Source: a virus (taxonomy: Duplodnaviria > Heunggongvirae > Uroviricota > Caudoviricetes). Taken from it: a DNA stretch of 9,102 nt. The notes below the pieces were generated by a model. The model saw only the letters and a list, made by a program, of their open reading frames with translations, searched no databases and was not told the origin of the DNA. The stretch covers positions 1 to 9,102 of IMG/VR virus record IMGVR_UViG_2547132281_000003. The stretch is one strand, 5' to 3'. The first letter of the stretch is position 1, and each line of letters opens with the position of its first letter. Position numbers and translations under genes: made by a program. Shown in pieces: positions 1-9,102 of the stretch.

Positions 1-648
1 ATGAAACACCGGACCTGGATCACTGAAGCTTTACGTCTTCACTTTGAAGAACATTTACCCCGGGTTGTGGCCGGGCGTCGCCTGGGTGTACCAAAATCAA
101 CAGTTTGTAGTATGTTCGTGCGCTTTCGGAGAGCTGGCCTTTCGTGGCCTTTGCCCGCAGGCATGTCGGAGCAGGAACTTGATGCCTGCCTTTACGGACA
201 ATTTTCCACGGTACCAGTCGTACGTCCTGAAAGCACCGTTATATCCGAAGCCCCCGTGGTAAAAAAACGTCCCCGGCGGCCCAACTTCCCTTATGAGTTT
301 AAAATCGCCTTAGTGGAGCAGTCACTGCAGCCCGGAGCCTGTGTGGCGCAGATCGCCCGGGAAAACGGAATCAACGATAACCTGCTCTTCAACTGGCGCC
401 ATCAATACCGGAAAGGTGGCCTGCTGCCTTCCGGAAAAAATATGCCGGCACTGCTTCCCGTGACGTTAACGCCGGAGCCGGATAATAAAATCCCGGCCCC
501 CGCACAGGAACCAGAGCAGATAAATACACCGTCCGACAGTCTGTGTTGTGAGCTGGTTCTGCCGGCCGGAACTCTCAGGCTTAAAGGTAAACTGACGCCG
601 GCGTTATTACAGACACTTATCCGCGAAATAAAAGGGAGCAGCCACTGA
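1..648 (+). CDS. tnpA: IS66-family accessory protein TnpA (orf1) with an extra ~85-aa N-terminal helix-turn-helix-like region
   Basis: The C-terminal ~130 aa (PNFPYEFKIALVEQSL...ENGINDNLLFNWRHQYRKG) aligns with the orf1 of copy 2 at 2726..3127. Its TGA stop (646-648) overlaps the tnpB ATG (648-650). The N-terminal segment (GRRLGVPKSTVCSMFVRFRRAGLSWPLP) has no counterpart in copy 2. Confidence 0.75.
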   Translation: MKHRTWITEALRLHFEEHLPRVVAGRRLGVPKSTVCSMFVRFRRAGLSWPLPAGMSEQELDACLYGQFSTVPVVRPESTVISEAPVVKKRPRRPNFPYEFKIALVEQSLQPGACVAQIARENGINDNLLFNWRHQYRKGGLLPSGKNMPALLPVTLTPEPDNKIPAPAQEPEQINTPSDSLCCELVLPAGTLRLKGKLTPALLQTLIREIKGSSH

Positions 649-995
649 TGATATCTCTCCCTGCAGGTTCGCGTATCTGGCTGGTTGCAGGTATCACCGA
701 TATGCGAAATGGCTTTAACGGCCTGGCATCAAAAGTTCAGAACGTCCTGAAGGATGACCCGTTCTCCGGACACCTGTTCATCTTCCGCGGACGCCGGGGT
801 GACCAGATAAAAGTGTTGTGGGCTGACAGTGACGGACTGTGCCTCTTCACCAAACGCCTGGAGCGGGGCCGCTTCGTCTGGCCAGTCACCCGTGACGGCA
901 AGGTGCACCTTACTCCGGCTCAGTTATCCATGCTTCTTGAAGGTATCAACTGGAAGCACCCGAAACGAACGGAACGCGCTGGAATCCGCATATAA
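648..995 (+). CDS. tnpB: IS66-family TnpB (orf2), 115 aa
   Basis: Typical IS66 orf2 sequence ([16 protein letters not shown]...LFIFRGRRGDQIKVLW...KRLERGRF). It is highly similar to the 115-aa ORF at 3124..3471 and is start/stop coupled to tnpA. Confidence 0.9.
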   Translation: MISLPAGSRIWLVAGITDMRNGFNGLASKVQNVLKDDPFSGHLFIFRGRRGDQIKVLWADSDGLCLFTKRLERGRFVWPVTRDGKVHLTPAQLSMLLEGINWKHPKRTERAGIRI

Positions 996-1014
996 CCCGT
1001 TGTAAAGTGAGGAT

Positions 1015-2586
1015 ATGGACACCTCACTTGCTCATGAGAACGCCCGCCTGCGGGCACTGTTGCAGACGCAACAGGACACCATCCGCCAGATGGCTGAATA
1101 CAACCGCCTGCTCTCACAGCGGGTGGCGGCTTATGCTTCCGAAATCAACCGGCTGAAGGCGCTGGTTGCGAAACTGCAGCGCATGCAGTTCGGTAAAAGC
1201 TCAGAAAAACTTCGTGCAAAAACCGAACGGCAGATACAGGAAGCACAGGAGCGAATCAGCGCACTTCAGGAAGAAATGGCGGAAACGCTGGGTGAGCAAT
1301 ATGACCCGGTACTGCCATCCGCCCTGCGCCAGTCTTCAGCCCGTAAACCGTTACCGGCCTCACTTCCCCGTGAAACCCGGGTTATCCGGCCGGAAGAGGA
1401 ATGCTGTCCTGCCTGTGGTGGTGAACTCAGTTCTCTGGGATGTGATGTGTCAGAGCAACTGGAGCTTATCAGCAGCGCCTTTAAGGTTATCGAAACACAA
1501 CGTCCGAAACAGGCCTGTTGCCGGTGCGACCATATCGTGCAGGCACCAGTACCTTCAAAACCCATTGCACGCAGTTATGCCGGAGCGGGGCTTCTGGCCC
1601 ATGTTGTCACCGGGAAATATGCAGACCATCTGCCGTTATACCGCCAGTCAGAAATATACCGTCGTCAGGGAGTGGAGCTGAGCCGTGCCACACTGGGGCG
1701 CTGGACAGGTGCTGTTGCTGAACTGCTGGAGCCGCTGTATGACGTCCTGCGCCAGTATGTGCTGATGCCCGGTAAAGTCCATGCTGATGATATCCCCGTC
1801 CCGGTCCAGGAGCCGGGCAGCGGTAAAACCCGGACAGCCCGGCTGTGGGTCTACGTCCGTGATGACCGTAACGCCGGTTCACAGATGCCCCCGGCGGTCT
1901 GGTTCGCGTACAGTCCGGACCGGAAAGGTATCCATCCACAAAATCACCTGGCCGGTTACAGCGGTGTGCTTCAGGCCGATGCTTACGGTGGTTACCGGGC
2001 GTTATACGAATCCGGCAGAATAACGGAAGCCGCGTGTATGGCTCATGCCCGGAGAAAAATCCACGATGTGCATGCAAGAGCGCCCACCGACATCACCACG
2101 GAAGCCCTGCAGCGTATCGGTGAACTGTATGCCATCGAGGCAGAGGTCCGGGGCTGTTCAGCAGAACAGCGTCTGGCGGCAAGAAAAGCCAGAGCCGCGC
2201 CACTGATGCAGTCACTGTATGACTGGATACAGCAACAGATGAAAACACTGTCGCGTCACTCAGATACGGCAAAAGCGTTCGCATACCTGCTGAAACAGTG
2301 GGATGCACTGAACGTGTACTGCAGTAATGGCTGGGTGGAAATCGACAACAACATCGCAGAGAACGCCTTACGGGGAGTGGCCGTAGGCCGGAAAAACTGG
2401 ATGTTCGCGGGTTCCGACAGCGGTGGTGAACATGCGGCGGTGTTGTACTCGCTGATCGGCACATGCCGTCTGAACAATGTGGAGCCAGAAAAGTGGCTGC
2501 GTTACGTCATTGAACATATCCAGGACTGGCCGGCAAACCGGGTACGCGATCTGTTGCCCTGGAAAGTTGATCTGAGCTCTCAGTAA
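1015..2586 (+). CDS. tnpC: IS66-family DDE transposase TnpC (orf3), 523 aa, ISEc8-like
   Basis: N-terminal leucine-zipper-like coiled coil, CxxC...CxxC zinc finger (CCPACGG...CCRCDH), and DDE-region motifs [14 protein letters not shown] and [16 protein letters not shown] Shine-Dalgarno sits at 1007-1011. Confidence 0.92.
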
Positions 2587-2590
2587 ATAT

Positions 2591-2616
2591 CAATACGGTT
2601 CTGACGAGTCGCTTAC
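2591..2616. repeat. Right terminal inverted repeat of IS66 copy 1
   Basis: CAATACGGTTCTGACGAGTCGCTTAC closely matches the right end of copy 2 (5071..5096) and ends with CGCTTAC. Confidence 0.7.
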
Positions 2617-2646
2617 GATTATCAAGCTCAATTATAACTTTTTCCA

Positions 2647-2654
2647 TTTTCCAC
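2647..2654. repeat. Target-site duplication (left copy), TTTTCCAC
   Basis: The 8 bp immediately left of the GTAAGCG terminus at 2655 are identical to the 8 bp immediately right of the CGCTTAC terminus (5097..5104). An 8-bp duplication is characteristic of the IS66 family. Confidence 0.85.
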
Positions 2655-2680
2655 GTAAGCGTACAGCCTGAACCGTCTGG
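2655..2680. repeat. Left terminal inverted repeat of IS66 copy 2
   Basis: Starts GTAAGCGT; it pairs with the reverse complement of 5071..5096 (GTAAGCGTGCAGCAAGAACCGT...) with a few mismatches. Confidence 0.75.
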
Positions 2681-2746
2681 TCAGAATCTGACAAATTAGA
2701 CAAAGTGGTGTCCACCAAATAAGTAGTGGGAACCAAAGTGTCAGAT

Positions 2747-3127
2747 ATGCAGAAAAATGTGACTCCCGGCAGGCGAAAAGGCTGCCCTAATTATCCTCCC
2801 GAATTTAAACAGCAGCTCGTTGCTGCCTCCTGTGAACCCGGGATATCCATCTCAAAACTTGCTCTTGAAAATGGCATTAACGCCAATCTGTTGTTCAAAT
2901 GGCGACAACAATGGCGCGAGGGAAAGCTGCTATTACCTTCTTCAGAGAGCCCCCAGCTACTTCCTGTGACTCTCGATGCAGCTGCCGAACAGCCAGAATC
3001 GCTCGCAGAGGACCCGGAAACCCTCAGTATCAGCTGTGAGGTAACGTTCCGGCACGGGACGCTCCGCTTCAATGGCAATGTCAGCGAAAAGCTCCTGACT
3101 CTGCTGATACAGGAACTGAAGCGATGA
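2747..3127 (+). CDS. tnpA: IS66-family TnpA (orf1); the ORF track begins at GTG 2726, the first ATG is at 2747
   Basis: Conserved orf1 core (YPPEFKQQLVAASCEPGISISKLALENGINANLLFKWRQQWREGK) parallels the copy 1 orf1. The stop and the tnpB start overlap as ATGA (3124-3127). Confidence 0.8.
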   Translation: MQKNVTPGRRKGCPNYPPEFKQQLVAASCEPGISISKLALENGINANLLFKWRQQWREGKLLLPSSESPQLLPVTLDAAAEQPESLAEDPETLSISCEVTFRHGTLRFNGNVSEKLLTLLIQELKR

Positions 3128-3471
3128 TCCCGTTACCTTCCGGGACCAAAATTTGGCTGGTTGCCGGTATCACCGATATGAGAAATGGCTTCAACGGCCT
3201 GGCTGCGAAAGTACAAACGGCGCTGAAAGACGATCCCATGTCCGGCCATGTTTTCATTTTCCGGGGCCGCAGCGGCAGTCAGGTTAAACTGCTGTGGTCC
3301 ACCGGTGACGGACTGTGCCTCCTGACCAAACGGCTGGAGCGTGGGCGCTTCGCCTGGCCGTCAGCCCGTGATGGCAAAGTGTTCCTTACGCAGGCGCAGC
3401 TGGCGATGCTGCTGGAAGGTATCGACTGGCGACAGCCCAAGCGGTTGCTGACCTCCCTGACCATGCTGTAA
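3124..3471 (+). CDS. tnpB: IS66-family TnpB (orf2), 115 aa
   Basis: Same length as the copy 1 TnpB and similar over most of it ([18 protein letters not shown]...TKRLERGRF), with its ATG in the ATGA overlap with the tnpA stop. Confidence 0.9.
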
Positions 3472-3496
3472 ATCTCTTTATCCTGGTTGTCACAGA

Positions 3497-3522
3497 ATAA
3501 GCCCGGTAAAATACGGGCTTAT
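3497..3522 (+). promoter_or_regulatory. Stem-loop overlapping the tnpC start codon of IS copy 2 (possible translational control)
   Basis: ATAAGCCCG (3497-3505) and CGGGCTTAT (3514-3522) are perfect 9-bp inverted arms around an 8-nt loop. The second arm contains the AT of the tnpC ATG (3521-3523), and no obvious Shine-Dalgarno precedes it. Confidence 0.4.
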
Positions 3523-5059
3523 GAACGACATCTCTTCTGACGACATCTTCCTGCTGAAACAGCGCCTGGCCGAACAGGAAGCGCTGATCCACGCCCTGCA
3601 GGAAAAGCTGAGCAACCGGGAGCGCGAAATAGACCATCTGCAGGCGCAGCTGGATAAACTCCGCCGGATGAACTTCGGCAGTCGTTCCGAAAAAGTCTCC
3701 CGCCGTATCGCACAAATGGAAGCCGATCTGAACCGGCTTCAGAAAGAGAGCGATACGCTGACTGGTAGGGTGTATGACCCGGCTGTACAGCGTCCGTTGC
3801 GTCAGACCCGCACCCGTAAGCCGTTCCCTGAATCACTACCCCGTGACGAAAAGCGACTGTTGCCTGCGGCGCCGTGCTGCCCGAACTGCGGCGGTTCACT
3901 GAGCTATCTGGGCGAGGATACCGCCGAACAGCTGGAGTTGATGCGTAGTGCCTTCCGGGTTATCCGGACGGTACGGGAAAAACATGCCTGTACTCAGTGC
4001 GATGCCATCGTGCAGGCACCTGCACCTTCGCGGCCCATCGAGCGGGGTATCGCCGGACCGGGGCTGCTGGCCCGCGTGCTGACCTCGAAGTATGCAGAGC
4101 ACACCCCGCTGTATCGCCAGTCAGAAATATACGGCCGGCAAGGTGTGGAGCTGAGCCGTTCACTGCTGTCGGGCTGGGTGGATGCATGCTGCCGGCTGCT
4201 GTCTCCGCTGGAAGAGGCGCTTCATGGCTATGTCATGACTGACGGCAAACTCCATGCCGATGATACCCCGGTCCAGGTACTGCTGCCGGGTAATAAGAAG
4301 ACGAAGACCGGGCGGTTGTGGGCGTATGTTCGTGATGACCGCAATGCCGGGTCAGCGTTGGCACCTGCAGTGTGGTTCGCTTACAGCCCGGACAGAAAAG
4401 GCATCCATCCGCAGACTCATCTTGCCTGCTTCAGCGGTGTGCTGCAAGCGGATGCGTACGCCGGGTTCAACGAGCTGTATCGCAATGGTGGGATAACGGA
4501 AGCTGCCTGCTGGGCTCATGCCCGCCGAAAGATCCACGATGTGCACGTCCGCATCCCGTCAGCACTGACGGAAGAAGCCCTGGAGCAGATCGGTCAGTTG
4601 TACGCCATAGAGGCGGATATAAGGGGAATGCCGGCAGAGCAGCGGCTTGCTGAACGTCAGCGAAAAACGAAACCGCTGTTGAAATCCCTGGAAAGCTGGT
4701 TGCGTGAAAAGATGAAAACCCTGTCGCGACACTCAGAACTGGCGAAAGCGTTCGCATACGCCCTGAACCAGTGGCCGGCGCTGACGTACTATGCAGATGA
4801 TGGCTGGGCTGAGGCGGACAATAACATCGCTGAAAATGCGTTGCGGATGGTCAGTCTGGGCCGCAAAAACTACCTGTTCTTCGGTTCGGATCATGGAGGA
4901 GAGCGGGGAGCGCTGCTGTACAGCCTGATCGGGACGTGCAAACTGAACGGAGTGGAGCCAGAAAGCTACCTCCGCTATGTCCTTGACGTCATAGCCGACT
5001 GGCCGATAAACCGGGTCGGCGAACTGCTCCCCTGGCGCGTAGCACTGCCGACTGAATAA
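3521..5059 (+). CDS. tnpC: IS66-family DDE transposase TnpC (orf3), 512 aa
   Basis: Coiled-coil N-terminus, zinc finger (CCPNCGG...CTQCD), and motifs [14 protein letters not shown] and [10 protein letters not shown]. It is collinear with the copy 1 TnpC but clearly divergent from it. Confidence 0.92.
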
Positions 5060-5070
5060 CACATCCCCGT

Positions 5071-5096
5071 CAATACGGTTCTTGCTGCACGCTTAC
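5071..5096. repeat. Right terminal inverted repeat of IS66 copy 2
   Basis: CAATACGGTTCTTGCTGCACGCTTAC; ends with CGCTTAC and is followed directly by the TTTTCCAC duplication. Confidence 0.75.
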
Positions 5097-5104
5097 TTTT
5101 CCAC
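5097..5104. repeat. Target-site duplication (right copy), TTTTCCAC
   Basis: Identical to 2647..2654. Confidence 0.85.
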
Positions 5105-5197
5105 CAACCTGTCCAACTTTAAAAAGTTACTTTTAAGTATATGATAAACATAGTTTATTAAACGTGATCCACTACTTTTAATGAAGAATATTCCCCA

Positions 5198-5233
5198 AAA
5201 CAGAAAGCCCCTCGACTGAGGGGCTTTCTGTTT
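5198..5233 (-). terminator. Intrinsic (potentially bidirectional) terminator hairpin immediately downstream of ogr
   Basis: AAACAGAAAGCCCCTC-GACT-GAGGGGCTTTCTGTTT is a perfect 16-bp inverted repeat with a 4-nt loop and a GC-rich stem, flanked by A-rich and T-rich runs. It lies 4 nt beyond the ogr stop. Confidence 0.75.
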
Positions 5234-5237
5234 GTAA

Positions 5238-5456
5238 TTACATCCACATAATTTGCTGCCCTGACGGCAACGGGTGCGGCCTCACGGCGTGGACTTCTCC
5301 CGGCTTCACGATGTATCGCTGTACCGACTCATAAGTGATGAACGTGGCGCTGCAATTCACGTTCTGGCACTGGTGATAACGCTCTTTTGTCGTGTCAGTG
5401 ATATAGCGACTTGTACGCGCATGTGCGGCATGCTGGCATAAAGGACAATGAAACAT
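5238..5456 (-). CDS. ogr: Ogr/Delta-family zinc-finger late-gene transcriptional activator, 72 aa
   Basis: MFHCPLCQHAAHARTSRYITDTTKERYHQCQNVNCSATF... matches phage P2 Ogr as I remember it, with the four zinc-binding Cys. A GGAAGAGG Shine-Dalgarno precedes the ATG at 5456. The 99-aa ORF in the track (start 5537) is an upstream in-frame extension. Confidence 0.93.
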   Translation of the reverse strand: MFHCPLCQHAAHARTSRYITDTTKERYHQCQNVNCSATFITYESVQRYIVKPGEVHAVRPHPLPSGQQIMWM

Positions 5457-5536
5457 CGCGAGCACCTCTTCCGGTTTTGTTAATGGTGCCATTTTATTTA
5501 ATTTATCCTTATAAAACAAACAGATAAAACAAAGCA
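5457..5536 (-). promoter_or_regulatory. Probable ogr promoter and ribosome-binding region (D-ogr intergenic)
   Basis: AT-rich 80-bp spacer between the D stop and the ogr start, with TTGTTT...TATAAG-like elements on the minus strand. This is a by-eye assignment only. Confidence 0.35.
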
Positions 5537-6700
5537 TTAATCATCATCTTCTGTTTCGTACTCCACATCAGAAAGCCTGACCTCAAGCTCTAAGGACGTC
5601 GTGAAGCCGCTATTATTCAGAAAATGTGTCACCTTAGTGATTGTCCAGTCCTGCTCGTCTATGACGCGCTTAAAGCCTGACACTCTGACCGGTGTTTCCG
5701 TGTAAATATCAGCACGACCAGTGGCAAGGCTGATGGAGAACTCCGCAACGCCCCGTTGCAGTTTATCCCACTTCGCCTGAGCGGCGCGCATGGCCTGCGC
5801 TTTCGTGGCATATACCGTAGTCAGGGCAAAAACGTTGTCAGCCTCACCGGCCATGTATTCACCTTCGCGCGCTTCCGGTACTTTTGGCGCTTTCTTCTGC
5901 GTGACCGGTTTTGCTTTCGGGTGCTCCAGTGCGCGCAGGTGTTTTTCTTTCTTTTTGCGTTTCAGTTTTACCTTCTGCTTTTGTGGTTTCGGGTCTTTGG
6001 TGTGTAACCACTTTGCCGTTACGCCGGTATAGGCTCCACGGTCAGCAATCGCAAAATGATGGCGGTCGCCGTCGCTGCGGGTTATGGTGACCTGCGGGAT
6101 TTTTTTACCGCTGGCCGTCACCCCCTGCCCCGCTTTGAGAAACAACAGTTTTCCCATTTTTACCGAGACCTCACCGCCGTTGCGTTCTGCAAGACGGGTC
6201 AGGAATTTCGCATCAGACTCCTGCGACTGGTCGATGTGCGGGATTTTAATTCCGGCCAGTGACGGAGCGACACTGGCTTCCAGCCTGTTACGGGAGGCTA
6301 TCGCCTCAACAATCGCACCGAGCGTGGTGTCATGCCAGGAGCCTTCCCGGCGGGAATTGAGCGTCCCGCGAAAATCTGCACTCCGGGCGCGGATGGTGAC
6401 CACATCCGGAGCGCCCCGGTGTTCAACCTCATCAACGGTAAATTTCCCTTTGCATACCAGGGCAAAACCTTTCCAGCCGATATAAACCGTCAGGACAGCG
6501 CCACGAACCGGCAGCCCGACCTGCCCGTCGGCATCGTTCAGTTCAATATCAAGCTGGTCAGCCTCAAAGCCCCGGTTATCCGTCAGGGTCATACTCATCA
6601 GACGGTCGCTGATATTGCCGGTAATATCCCTGCTGTCGAGCATCAGCATGTAATCCGGCGTCAGCGTACTGCCTGCATCAAATGTCAGCGCATCCAGCAT
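5537..6700 (-). CDS. D: P2 gpD-like tail protein (late control gene D), 387 aa, apparently full length
   Basis: Length and sequence match P2 gpD as I remember it (MLDALTFDAGSTLTPDYMLMLDSRDITGNISDRLMSMTL...). Its start overlaps the stop of the upstream U-like ORF (TAATG). Confidence 0.92.
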   Translation of the reverse strand: MLDALTFDAGSTLTPDYMLMLDSRDITGNISDRLMSMTLTDNRGFEADQLDIELNDADGQVGLPVRGAVLTVYIGWKGFALVCKGKFTVDEVEHRGAPDVVTIRARSADFRGTLNSRREGSWHDTTLGAIVEAIASRNRLEASVAPSLAGIKIPHIDQSQESDAKFLTRLAERNGGEVSVKMGKLLFLKAGQGVTASGKKIPQVTITRSDGDRHHFAIADRGAYTGVTAKWLHTKDPKPQKQKVKLKRKKKEKHLRALEHPKAKPVTQKKAPKVPEAREGEYMAGEADNVFALTTVYATKAQAMRAAQAKWDKLQRGVAEFSISLATGRADIYTETPVRVSGFKRVIDEQDWTITKVTHFLNNSGFTTSLELEVRLSDVEYETEDDD

Positions 6701-7047
6701 TATCCCGCCCCCGTCATACCCGTGAATCTGGTCGCCATACTGCCAGCCTTACCGATGAGCGATTCCGCCTGTTTACCGATATCGCCATAAAGCGCGGCCA
6801 GTGATTCATCAACGCGGGTGAGTGACAGCGTAAAATCAATTTTCCGGGGTGTGCCGTCTGCAAAGAAAATACTCCCTGTTTCACTCACCCTGCTGATGAC
6901 ATACATGCCGTAAATCATGCCGGTGCCATCCAGCAACGGCCACGCCCGTCCCTCCTCTGCCATCAGCCTGAGCGTGGTCATCGTCAGCTTGCCGCCGGTC
7001 AGTTCGGGATAAAGCACACCGGCCAGCGTCATGTTTTCCTCACCCAC
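6700..7047 (-). CDS. U: P2 gpU-like tail protein, probably N-terminally truncated (possible pseudogene)
   Basis: The C-terminal ~110 aa (TLAGVLYPELTGGKLTMTTLRLMAEEGRAWPLLDGTGMIYG...) resemble gpU. The track start is a GTG at 7047; the first ATG is at 7030-7032. The same frame stays open upstream to a stop at 7108-7110. My recollection is that P2 gpU is about 159 aa, so roughly 25-50 N-terminal residues appear to be missing. Confidence 0.65.
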   Translation of the reverse strand: MGEENMTLAGVLYPELTGGKLTMTTLRLMAEEGRAWPLLDGTGMIYGMYVISRVSETGSIFFADGTPRKIDFTLSLTRVDESLAALYGDIGKQAESLIGKAGSMATRFTGMTGAG

Positions 7048-7637
7048 ACCGAGAAACTGGTAGGCATCCCGTTTGCAGAATATGCCTGCCTCGTGGTCAT
7101 CTGTCCTTTACGGTATTTTTTCCAGTAAAGCGGGGAAATATTGAAAGCACGTGCAGCGCCAGCAACATGACCATAGAGGTGAGCCTGCGCCTCATCCGTA
7201 AACAGCGATTCTTTCTCGCCATGCGCATCCACCCAGGCATCGCTGAGTTCCTCATACATCATGAAAAGCTGCGATGAGATACGGGCGGCAAACTTTTTCA
7301 GCTCCTTGTCATTCATTCCCGGCAGGCGCGCATAGTGGTCACGCTCAGCCAGAACCCCCATCCACAAAAGCCATGCATCACGCTGTTCAACCGGTCGGTT
7401 ATAAAACGCCTCACGTACAGCGCGATTAAACTCAGGAATGAAAACCCATTTTTCACCGGCACGAGCCTTCGGTTTGCAAGGATCACGCAATTCAATAATT
7501 GGTAATTTATTTGCCTTCACCATTTCACTGACAGCTGTCTTTGGCTTCCCTAATAAATCAGCAAATTTATCCACATGAACCGCATCAAGCGGATACTGAA
7601 TCACATAATTTTCAGCGTCCATATATGGTACCCTCAT
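7029..7637 (-). CDS. cox: Cox-like (P2 excisionase / early-promoter repressor family) N-terminal domain fused to a ~100-aa C-terminal extension of unknown origin, 202 aa
   Basis: Residues ~10-97 (YPLDAVHVDKFADLLGKPKTAVSEMVKANKLPIIELRDP...ARAGEKWVFIPEFN...QRDAWLLWMG) parallel P2 Cox (91 aa) as I remember it. Residues ~100-202 have no match I recognise. It is divergent from the C repressor gene, and its TGA overlaps the first ATG of the U fragment as ATGA. Confidence 0.6.
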   Translation of the reverse strand: MRVPYMDAENYVIQYPLDAVHVDKFADLLGKPKTAVSEMVKANKLPIIELRDPCKPKARAGEKWVFIPEFNRAVREAFYNRPVEQRDAWLLWMGVLAERDHYARLPGMNDKELKKFAARISSQLFMMYEELSDAWVDAHGEKESLFTDEAQAHLYGHVAGAARAFNISPLYWKKYRKGQMTTRQAYSANGMPTSFSVWVRKT

Positions 7638-7758
7638 AGGATCCAGCCCTTTCTAAACCACTCAAAACCGTTTAGACGCTGGTTTATTCTCAAATCAATG
7701 GAACCTATATAGGTTCCAGTTTTGAGGGAATTTAGTCCCTATATAGGCACCATGTCAA
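7638..7758. promoter_or_regulatory. Immunity switch region between the divergent cox-like and C genes, with candidate promoters and operators
   Basis: AT-rich 121-bp spacer containing an 18-bp perfect palindrome GGAACCTATATAGGTTCC (7700-7717), a second copy of its CCTATATAGG core (7738-7747), a related CCTCATAGG at the cox start (7632-7640), and a TAAACCA...TGGTTTA inverted pair (7653-7686). Confidence 0.5.
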
Positions 7759-8052
7759 ATGAAATTAAGCGAAAAGATTAAGGCCTTGCGTGAGGCTGAA
7801 GGGCTAAGCCAATCAAAATTCTGTGAAATCATAGAGTTACCGCTAAGCACACTTAAAAAATATGAAGGAGGAAACTTTGAACCCGGTGGCACAGCTTTGC
7901 TAAAAATCACTATGCATCCCACATTCCAAAAATATGCTCTATGGCTTATGACAGATAAAACCGCGCCGGACGCAGGACAAATCGCACCGGCTCTCGCGCA
8001 CATTGGGCCAGAGTCAACAGAGTCCAACCACTCCGCGAAAAGGATTGGCTAA
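7759..8052 (+). CDS. C: P2 C-type immunity repressor (helix-turn-helix), 97 aa
   Basis: LSEKI...LSQ..., the helix-turn-helix region, and the C-terminal ...TPxFxKYxLWxMT...APxxGQIAPALAH... segment match P2 repressor C as I remember it. It lies directly upstream of int, as in P2. Confidence 0.85.
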   Translation: MKLSEKIKALREAEGLSQSKFCEIIELPLSTLKKYEGGNFEPGGTALLKITMHPTFQKYALWLMTDKTAPDAGQIAPALAHIGPESTESNHSAKRIG

Positions 8053-8121
8053 CTCTATATAAAGATTACATTTTCACCATTTGCTACCAAGATGGTGAAT
8101 ACAGCGCCGGAGGGCTTTCTT

Positions 8122-9102
8122 ATGGCAATTAAGAAGCTCGATGATGGTCGCTATGAAGTGGACATTAGACCTCGCGGTCGCGACGGAAAACGCATCCGCA
8201 GGAAATTCGAAAGAAAAGCTGAAGCACTAGCATTTGAGCGATACACAATCGCCAATGCCAGTCAGAAAGAATGGGGAGGCCAGCGAGCAGACCGCCGGAC
8301 TTTGAGTGAGTTGCTGGACATCTGGTGGAAATATCACGGGCAAAACCACGAGCATGGAACAAAAGAGTTTAATCATCTACTCAAAACCATCAGCGGCATA
8401 GGTGATATACCAGTGAGCAGGATGAGCAAAAGGGCTTTGATGGATTATCGTTCCATGCGACTACGTGATGGTATCAGTGCCGCAACGATAAACCGTGACA
8501 TGTACCGATTATCCGGCATGTTCACAAAATTAATTCAATTGGATGAATTTTCCGGGCAACACCCAATTCACGGACTGCCGCCACTGGCGGAGGCCAACCC
8601 TGAAATGACGTTCCTGGAAAAAGCAGAAATCGAAAAACTGTTAAATGTTTTGGCTGGTGATGACTTACTTGTCGCGCTTTTATGTCTGAGCACTGGAGGA
8701 AGATGGACGGAAGTTGCCACGCTAAAACCAGCACAGATTACAAATTGCAGGGTTACCTTCCTGAAAACCAAAAACGGTAAAAAGCGAACCGTGCCGATTT
8801 CTGAGGAACTGGAGAAAAAAGTTAAAGAGGAGGCCAGCGCCAAATTATTCAAAGTTGATTATGAGAAATTTTGCGGGATTTTACGCAGAGTGAAACCTGA
8901 TATACCACCCAATCAGGCAACCCACATCCTGCGGCATACATTCGCAAGCCATTTCATGATGAATGGGGGCAATATAATCGCACTGCAACAGATTCTGGGA
9001 CATGCGAGCATTCAGCAGACGATGGCCTATGCGCACCTTGCGCCTGACTATCTGCAAAATGCCGTCGCTCTGAATCCACTAAAAGGCGGAGTGACGTTAT
9101 AA
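8122..9102 (+). CDS. int: P2-type tyrosine integrase (site-specific recombinase)
   Basis: MAIKKLDDGRYEVDIRP... matches the P2 Int N-terminus as I remember it. The catalytic region has HxLRH and a C-terminal Tyr (ATHILRHTFASHF...QTMAYAHL). A GGAGGG Shine-Dalgarno lies 7 nt upstream of ATG 8122; the track ORF starts 30 nt earlier at 8092. The stop is the last codon of the window. Confidence 0.93.
   Translation: MAIKKLDDGRYEVDIRPRGRDGKRIRRKFERKAEALAFERYTIANASQKEWGGQRADRRTLSELLDIWWKYHGQNHEHGTKEFNHLLKTISGIGDIPVSRMSKRALMDYRSMRLRDGISAATINRDMYRLSGMFTKLIQLDEFSGQHPIHGLPPLAEANPEMTFLEKAEIEKLLNVLAGDDLLVALLCLSTGGRWTEVATLKPAQITNCRVTFLKTKNGKKRTVPISEELEKKVKEEASAKLFKVDYEKFCGILRRVKPDIPPNQATHILRHTFASHFMMNGGNIIALQQILGHASIQQTMAYAHLAPDYLQNAVALNPLKGGVTL

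Follow-up and report, generated by a model that had tools for sequence, protein, structure and literature searches.

A defective P2-type prophage remnant with both ends retained at the cpxP-fieF site of an enterotoxigenic Escherichia coli lineage

The P2-type prophage Wphi1 of E. coli W is listed between cpxP and fieF, and an "ogr-D'" P2 remnant is present in K-12 at cyaR (PMC3032704). Like the remnant described here, "ogr-D'" (ogrK-yegZ) is a deletion-reduced member of the P2 family that retains ogr at its attR-proximal end and D in part or in full, and its site is likewise P2-type and overlaps an sRNA gene (PMC3032704). Closer to the present locus are full-length WPhi-type prophages (Wphi1, PD4, AHM21C2872I and M10), which share its site and its 47-bp core and are 97-100% identical to it in int-C-cox, A' and U-D-ogr with the adjoining cargo gene, but which keep 26 kb that is absent here, comprising B, A, cos, the genes for head, lysis and tail, and a hotspot cargo that is a reverse transcriptase in PD4 and a helicase in AHM21C2872I. 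Of the sequenced phages L-413C matches best; it has the same C/cox immunity region and is 98-99% identical over the retained P2 genes but is a viable 30.7-kb phage without the 213-aa gene between ogr and attP. The K-12 remnant lies at a different site and has presumably lost its int-C-cox end, whereas the remnant described here keeps both ends, the full D, a fragment of A and the cargo gene. The ogr copies of K-12 and B are reportedly functional.

The stretch of DNA analysed here (the window, 9,102 bp) comes from enterotoxigenic E. coli (ETEC) TW14425 (strain according to PMC4309559) and, judged by homology and gene order, very probably represents most of a defective P2-family prophage of the WPhi/L-413C type. 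In blastn comparisons with L-413C, a Yersinia phage of the genus Peduovirus, ogr-D-U' (5205-7074) is 98.1% and cox-C-int (7356-9102) 99.4% identical, and three collinear blocks with 95-99% DNA identity are recovered overall. The products match the Pfam families Ogr_Delta, Phage_GPD, Phage_P2_GpU, Phage_Cox, HTH_3 and Int_N with Phage_integrase. Together with the full-length relatives, these matches bear out the original prediction that the int-C-cox and U'-D-ogr ends of a P2-like prophage stand side by side in their native orientations: the genes in 5205-9102 (ogr, D, U', cox, C, int) follow the order and orientations of an integrated prophage, and ~30 kb lies between ogr-D-U' and cox-C-int in full-length relatives. 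The lengths given for ogr and D, 72 and 387 aa, also hold (Table 1).

Both att sites are retained. The remnant is flanked by 47-bp direct repeats of the att core (8358-8404, attL, and 18407-18453 in the wider locus L003), which lie outside the window, ~117 bp past its right end (attL) and ~784 bp past its left end. Integration was at the 3' end of the cpxQ sRNA gene, with cpxP on one side and fieF on the other; in K-12 the site is empty and the single copy of the core forms the 3' end of cpxQ. WPhi-type phage inserts in, and restores, the 3' terminus of the gene for the CpxQ sRNA. Because the repeats lie outside the window, positions 1-5237, including both IS66-family elements, belong to the remnant, and host flank at 5097-5204 is ruled out, as this stretch lies between the repeats. 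The element had originally been placed at 5198-9102; P2-like sequence does occupy 5205-9102, but the remnant is larger, ~4.9 kb without the IS elements.

Table 1 Features of the remnant in the window
Feature	Position	Strand	Basis or details
IS66-family element no. 1, ISCro1-like, 2,699 bp	1..2616	+	tnpA 1-648, tnpB 648-995, tnpC 1015-2586
38-bp island between the IS elements	2617..2654	-	100% match to M10 and PD4
IS66-family element no. 2, 2,442 bp	2655..5096	+	tnpA 2726-3127, tnpB 3124-3471, tnpC 3521-5059; Pfam IS66 domains
Prophage DNA between cargo gene and ogr	5097..5237	.	Collinear with full-length prophages of M10 and PD4
ogr terminator hairpin	~5208-5229		Within 5097..5237
ogr, zinc-finger late-gene activator, 72 aa	5238..5456	-	Pfam Ogr_Delta, E=1e-21
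D, tail/baseplate hub protein, 387 aa, full length	5537..6700	-	Pfam Phage_GPD
U', tail gene without first 105 nt (35 codons)	6700..7074	-	blastn matches to L-413C and PD4 stop at 7074
A', internal piece of replication endonuclease gene, codons ~117-210	7075..7354	-	Pfam Phage_GPA 1-84/321
Junction 2 (A'/cox)	7355..7359	.	AA microhomology, C5 run
cox', excisionase/repressor gene	7356..7637	-	Pfam Phage_Cox 7-86/87; mapped on PD4 cox CDS
Divergent early control region, Pe/Pc type	7638..7758	.	0 mismatches to PD4
C, immunity repressor, 97 aa	7759..8052	+	Pfam HTH_3; DNA identical to PD4 and AHM21C2872I
int, tyrosine integrase, 326 aa as annotated	8122..9102	+	Pfam Int_N + Phage_integrase

L-413C homology begins at 5205. 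The ogr ORF is open as far as 5537, and relatives annotate ogrK with 219 nt. The exact D protein occurs in 1,223 index blocks, and the matches listed, full-length prophages among them, carry otherwise full sets of tail genes. In U', the Pfam GpU match begins at model position 31; A' is 95% identical to the A gene of L-413C and 100% identical to those of PD4 and AHM21C2872I. All that cox' lacks is its last codon and stop, and in TW14425 the reading frame continues into A' to form a Cox-A' ORF of 202/197 aa (7029-7637). The early control region contains a sigma-70-like site, TTGACA-18-TAAATT, on the minus strand (7758-7729). The int ORF is open from 8092 and ends exactly at 9102, and its DNA is identical to that of PD4.

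Comparison with intact relatives indicates how the remnant arose. Full-length prophages occupy the cpxP-fieF site in PD4, AHM21C2872I and M10, which answers the same-site comparison proposed with the original prediction, and they support reduction to the two ends by internal deletion in situ. The PD4 prophage, at the same cpxP/cpxQ-fieF site, has no mismatches to the window over 7073-9102 and two over 5097-7074; the retained prophage DNA thus differs from PD4 at 2 of ~4,000 positions, and the adjacent host DNA at 7 of 1,915. Relative to PD4, 26,056 bp are missing, in two portions of 2,100 bp and 23,956 bp with ~2 bp of microhomology at each joint. The two junctions, U'/A' (junction 1, at 7072-7075, with TT microhomology) and A'/cox, enclose 280-282 bp of gene A, a fragment at odds with the single large deletion originally envisaged; the proposed joining of cox' to U' is right as to the locus, but A' (7075-7354) intervenes.

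Outside the missing segments the remnant is collinear with the intact prophage, and there is no IS at either junction. IS-mediated deletion was considered and rejected: each IS element is a simple insertion, its 8-bp target duplication intact, and lies at least 2 kb from the junctions, so neither caused the deletions. With their microhomology, the junctions are explained by illegitimate recombination, without involvement of IS elements or site-specific recombination. In support of internal deletion, no missing P2 genes were found within 10 kb on either side of the remnant, and cos, present in PD4 and L-413C, is absent from the remnant and from the same flanks. In replication, packaging, head, lysis and tail genes the remnant falls short of a viable prophage, and it is defective.

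That the joints are chimeras of a 2010 draft assembly, and that the strain really has a complete prophage, is effectively refuted, and we give this reading next to no credence. The assembly does contain an N within a run of T at attR, the contig runs across two IS elements of multiple copies, and the C5 run at junction 2 is private, being C4 in all nine of the other carrier loci. Both junctions, however, are base-for-base equal in other assemblies and projects (prefixes PNVO and JAAP), and the uninterrupted PD4 sequence agrees exactly with the 38-bp island and with each target-site duplication. Because of the private +1 in the homopolymer, the in-frame Cox-A' ORF is seen in the TW14425 assembly only; exact look-up of the 202-aa version returned no match, and that of the 197-aa version matched TW14425 only.

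An exact look-up of the U' product identified at least 20 draft assemblies that carry both junctions, which excludes both an assembly join and a remnant unique to one strain; both junctions are present in 20 of the 23 longest contigs encoding this product, which stem from several sequencing projects. These carriers are near-clonal, with at most three SNPs in 4.2 kb, none of them coding. In megablast searches with the remnant and the junction region, 5,426 complete E. coli genomes contained neither of the junctions and no deletion intermediate, and PLSDB plasmids likewise contained neither junction; an exact 40-mer over junction 1 had no match among GTDB species representatives, which include one E. 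coli genome. The locus is usable as a lineage marker for an ETEC clone. Most carriers have int, C, D and ogr uninterrupted; in one, ISCro1 is inserted in int, and in others it interrupts the cargo gene or adjoins the attR core, with attR cut from its arm in five contigs.

We propose that a ~31-kb prophage, essentially identical to the intact one of PD4, lost these 26,056 bp in an ancestor of the ETEC lineage, either by illegitimate recombination at each of the two deletions given above or by one template-switching event that spared 282 bp of gene A. The losses comprise gene B, most of A, cos, all head and lysis genes and most tail genes; retained are attL, int, C, the early control region, cox without its last codon, A', U', D, ogr, the cargo gene and attR. 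These losses would abolish replication, lysis, virion assembly and packaging, and all four late promoters, judged by their positions on the P2 map, appear to have gone as well. Decay has since continued by IS66-family insertion, twice in the cargo gene of TW14425 and, in sister isolates, in int, in the cargo gene and at the attR core. The sole likely residual activity is that C, expressed from an unchanged promoter, could keep Pe silent and confer immunity to homoimmune P2-type phages; for Ogr, no late promoters are left in cis. The locus is an ordinary dead P2-type remnant in a diarrhoeal E. coli lineage, an element of a kind already known, and offers a clean, datable case of P2-type decay by microhomology deletions followed by IS insertions.

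Retention of attL, attR, int and, in most carriers, a nearly complete cox might suggest a mobilisable mini-element or satellite in which an int-att-cox unit is excised and then packaged or transferred by a complete P2-type helper. We regard this as wholly implausible. P4-like satellites have their own cos, primase-type replication genes and helper-manipulating genes; here there is no cos site, there are no satellite-type genes, and the only replication-gene sequence retained is codons ~117-210 of A, a stretch that we take to contain neither the ori nor the active site in P2. All bases outside the two IS elements are of P2-type prophage origin and collinear with an ordinary prophage, and the unit is known only from one site in one near-clonal set.

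The good condition of the retained genes had been read as a sign that function was kept rather than lost to random decay, and with it came the expectation that other isolates would carry no inactivating changes. Neither is borne out. Because the retained DNA is ~99.95% identical to that of an intact prophage, there has been no time to decay, and intact ORFs are the null expectation. Inactivation does occur elsewhere, in the carrier with ISCro1 in int and in E. coli 300081 (NZ_CM128587.1), from which C, cox and half of int are missing. The 300081 element, too, is an internally deleted P2-like prophage at cpxP-fieF with U-D-ogr at the attR end, but it has other endpoints, with half of int joined to FII', T partly deleted and no cargo gene, and it is independent of the TW14425 remnant.

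Domestication of int-C-cox and D-ogr as a useful module under purifying selection, for instance for C immunity to WPhi/L-413C-type phages or for Ogr action on the late promoters of incoming P2/P4, therefore seems unlikely to us. In its favour, the retained ORFs are full length except for U', A' and the last cox codon, the control region is unchanged, and the remnant persists in the at least 20 assemblies. Against it, the 300081 remnant retained another gene set, no role suggests itself for D in the absence of the other tail genes or for Ogr in the absence of late promoters, and where a domesticated module should be conserved across diverged lineages, with dN/dS <1 and without disruption, we find near-clonal carriers without coding differences, ISCro1 in int, and attR separated from its arm. 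Unbroken int, C, D and ogr in most carriers would also be expected under weak selection, and the carriers are too alike for drift and selection to be separated. Survival of both ends does not call for selection: with useful host genes to either side (cpxP/cpxQ and fieF/pfkA) setting the bounds, deletions in the interior would spare the two ends. Intact ORFs in a remnant are thus no sign of selection where a near-identical live prophage exists elsewhere. Outside annotation the significance of the remnant is slight, and the two side observations, on the cpxQ site and on the cargo gene, are possibly more useful.

The cargo gene adjoins ogr and was struck by IS66-family elements at three positions. 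Element no. 1, annotated in RefSeq as "IS66-like element ISCro1 family transposase", has its first 82 bp to the left of the window and entered after codon 11; set against the uninterrupted PD4 sequence, its ends are GTAACCGG...CGCTTAC and its 8-bp duplication is GATTATCA. Element no. 2 entered at the start codon; its terminal repeats are GTAAGCGT...ACGCTTAC, and the 8-bp duplication TTTTCCAC stands at 2647-2654 and again at 5097-5104. The island between them holds the start codon (2645-2647), the first 11 codons and copies of the target-site duplications, and the truncated ORF begins MEKVIIELDNR. A mobile composite formed by the tandem pair was rejected, as each element has its own duplication and the two are nested differently at another locus in ETEC E7476.

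It is conceivable, but quite improbable, that the remnant is kept by the ETEC lineage as a working immunity cassette in which C blocks WPhi/L-413C-type phages and that the IS insertions were selected to silence the cargo gene as a toxin-like abortive-infection gene; if the silencing were true, the clustered IS66 insertions at its 5' end would reflect selection after loss of the rest of the prophage and not a neutral hot spot. PD-T4-10 is a toxin-antitoxin-like defence system of two overlapping ORFs, the antitoxin A and the toxin B (PMC9519451). The 213-aa cargo product is PD-T4-10B-like, matching PD-T4-10_B models at E=1e-34 over the C-terminal two-thirds of a 353-position model. In PD4, judged from an ORF listing, no partner ORF of at least 25 aa is evident beside the gene, and tblastn found no match to the protein among 50,697 phage records. 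WPhi-type phage carries a defence-like gene in an unusual place, between ogr and attP.

The window lies on contig AELE01000001.1 of assembly GCA_000166615.2, as identified by exact protein match; AELE00000000 is listed as enterotoxigenic Escherichia coli (ETEC) strain TW14425, a 1996 isolate from Guinea-Bissau (PMC4309559). Its best matches among 50,697 phage records searched by megablast are Peduovirus genomes, with Yersinia phage L-413C at the top, covering 96% of window 5060-9102 at 98.5%. Blastn against the annotated L-413C record resolves three collinear blocks (Table), and each phage product is confirmed by Pfam. These blocks and domain matches show that the close spacing of P2-type ends recognized in the original prediction is real and far beyond chance. 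The direct union of cox' with U' that was claimed alongside it does not hold, as a fragment of the replication gene A (A') lies between the two and creates two novel joints.

In the 20.6-kb TW14425 locus (L003), of which the window is positions 8521-17622 in reverse complement, the gene order is rhaSRT, sodA, kdgT, yiiM, cpxA, cpxR and cpxP, then int, C, cox-A', U', D, ogr, the two IS66-family elements and a hypothetical gene, then fieF and pfkA, with no other P2 genes within 10 kb on either side of the remnant. A 47-bp direct repeat bounds the remnant, beside cpxP (attL, L003 8358-8404) and beside fieF (attR, L003 18407-18453). Because both att sites fall outside the window, and because there is a second joint, the proposal of a prophage cut down to its ends by internal deletion stands in its structure but not in its single joint or its boundaries. 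Window 5097-5237 and the 213-aa cargo gene split by the two IS elements are prophage DNA and lie between ogr and attR. In K-12 (locus L035) nothing is integrated at this site, where the one att core copy is made up of the 3'-terminal 44 nt of the cpxQ sRNA gene and 3 further nt. The attL copy restores a complete cpxQ with one terminator-loop change, CATGCTGTG to CATGATGTG (attL, L003 8344-8404, versus K-12, L035 1831-1891). A full-length P2-type prophage is present at this site in each of E. coli M10, AHM21C2872I and PD4, and cpxP-fieF is the site of the P2-type prophage Wphi1 in the E. coli W genome paper (PMC3032704). We note that cpxQ, from the cpxP 3' UTR, supplies 44 of the 47 nt of the WPhi/L-413C-type att core.

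On sequence identity, the PD4 prophage effectively represents the undeleted form of the remnant: there are no mismatches over window 7356-9102 and 7073-7354, two over 5097-7074 (at 5534 and 6167) and seven in 1,915 bp of adjoining host DNA. Relative to PD4, two segments are missing, amounting to 26,056 bp of about 30,950. Two base pairs are common to both parents at each joint (TT at 7073-7074, AA at 7353-7354) and no IS is present at either. The joints fit illegitimate recombination, whether by two deletions one after the other or by a single template switch; no deletion intermediate was found. The two IS66-family elements of the window were considered as the cause of the deletions and rejected because both are simple insertions. 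The remnant has no copy of the 19-nt P2 cos sequence, which was confirmed at the L-413C terminus and, in PD4, in the interval from the portal gene to the cargo gene. The TW14425 remnant derives by deletion from WPhi/L-413C-type prophages and belongs to the same type as the K-12 'ogr-D'' P2 remnant, which lies at cyaR (PMC3032704). It adds a new member, specific to its lineage, to a class that is already well known; the type of element itself is not new.

Features of the window, of the segments missing relative to PD4 and of cargo in full-length relatives
Feature	Position	Strand	Detail	Basis
Two IS66-family elements	left 5.1 kb of window		each tnpA + tnpB + tnpC	ORF list
IS no. 1, ISCro1-like, 2,699 bp	window -82 to 2616		duplication GATTATCA; after codon 11 of cargo gene	versus uninterrupted PD4
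IS no. 2, 2,442 bp	window 2655-5096		duplication TTTTCCAC; at cargo-gene start codon	versus uninterrupted PD4
ogr	right of IS elements	-	72 aa (ORF open for 99)	ORF list + Pfam
D	right of ogr	-	387 aa	ORF list + Pfam
Truncated U, then 202-aa ORF	right of D	-		ORF list + Pfam
C	right of 202-aa ORF	+	97 aa	ORF list + Pfam
int	stop exactly at base 9102	+		ORF list + Pfam
Block 1	window 5205-7074		ogr, D, U without first 105 nt	98.1% to L-413C
Block 2	window 7075-7354		280-bp stretch from within replication gene A	95% to L-413C
Block 3	window 7356-9102		cox without last codon, C, int	99.4% to L-413C
Missing segment 1, 2,100 bp			last cox codon, genes between cox and A (including B), A nt 1-349	versus PD4
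Missing segment 2, 23,956 bp			A from about nt 632 to its end, reverse-transcriptase cargo gene, cos, Q to T, U nt 1-105	versus PD4
RNA-directed DNA polymerase	L015 14779-16323		PD4	
DEAD/DEAH helicase-family protein	L014 9428-11911		AHM21C2872I	
SIR2_2-domain protein + neighbouring gene	L013 2411-3891		CP098984.1	

Neither joint occurs in any of 5,426 complete RefSeq E. coli genomes or in PLSDB plasmids. In an index of assemblies, 52 blocks hold the exact 110-aa U' product, and 20 of the 23 longest U' contigs read carry the int-C-cox'-A'-U'-D-ogr arrangement (prefixes AELE, PNVO and JAAP). Nine other carrier loci, in alignments of up to 4,226 bp, share both joints with TW14425, which rules out an assembly artefact. 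SNPs among carriers map to window coordinates 9159, 5508 and 7736, none of them in a conserved ORF, and the only other difference is one extra base in the TW14425 C-run at 7355-7359; being near-identical, the carriers represent one clone. All other aligned carriers have C4, a clean microhomology joint that leaves Cox' (102 aa) and A' (114 aa) as separate ORFs. The 202-aa in-frame Cox-A' fusion hinges on the one extra base and is thus confined to the TW14425 assembly. Together with an N in a T-run at attR (L003 18446), the private additional C suggests homopolymer errors typical of 454 sequencing, making such an error a plausible origin of the fusion.

The region of the 213-aa cargo gene is represented at window 2617-2654 and 5097-5237, and full copies of the gene are at L016 2782-3423 (PD4) and L014 36887-37528 (AHM21C2872I). 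Its position between ogr and attR is outside the three classical P2 moron regions. L-413C differs in having no such gene, its attP arm following directly after the ogr terminator. The 213-aa product has no Pfam match and no match in the 50,697 phage records; it matches the PADLOC PD-T4-10_B models (E=1e-34), and no partner ORF is evident beside it. PD-T4-10_B is the toxin of a TA-like abortive-infection system (PMC9519451). The 119-bp 5' flank of the gene is present in 159 of 5,426 complete E. coli genomes. Full-length relatives also differ in the cargo that separates gene A from the portal gene (Table). This region lies wholly in the interval deleted from the remnant, and its content fits the known P2 defence hotspot.

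The argument that the retained genes are intact because they were kept for function is unsupported. Their DNA is near-identical to that of PD4, and they remain intact because the deletion happened recently on the scale of the substitution rate; hundreds of assemblies, full prophages included, encode a D protein of identical sequence. Survival of both ends is expected if deletions must spare cpxP/cpxQ and fieF/pfkA. The C control region is unchanged, with a Pe-like site at 7758-7729, and we predict from sequence that C would hold Pe silent and could confer immunity against homoimmune phages. Where a sister strain has intact att sites, excision by Int and Cox' might still be possible; lacking ori and cos, the element would not survive it. 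On the P2 map the four late promoters fall in the deleted interval, which leaves Ogr none in cis. A reading in which selection maintains C and has the toxin-like cargo gene silenced seems to us very improbable.

Inactivating changes in other isolates, which the original prediction had named as evidence against retained function, are present for int: in GCA_049977925.1 the contig ends inside the gene with 77 bases of an ISCro1 terminus. Three carrier contigs end inside D. An independent remnant at the same site, in strain 300081, differs in its endpoints and has half of int joined to FII', T partly deleted, and no C or cox.

The remnant is still decaying. Across sister isolates, IS66-family elements, mostly ISCro1, occupy at least five distinct positions in the 4.9-kb remnant: window 1-5096 (two elements); about codon 33 of the cargo gene, where ISCro1 is in opposite orientation in four carrier loci (L023/L024, L030/L032); L029 9659; and L031 1-77. 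Three of the positions fall in the cargo gene (GC 40%), within its first ~100 bp, and another is 1 bp from the attR core, where ISCro1 parts core from arm in five contigs. Either a hot spot for insertion or selection against the cargo gene could account for the clustering there, and the data fit both. The two elements of the window are also adjacent near tibA in other ETEC genomes (L017, E7476, NZ_CP035817.1 2214273-2224421). A shared composite transposon was rejected as the source of the pair, the E7476 arrangement being nested and different: its second element is without tnpA and an IS100 copy is adjacent.
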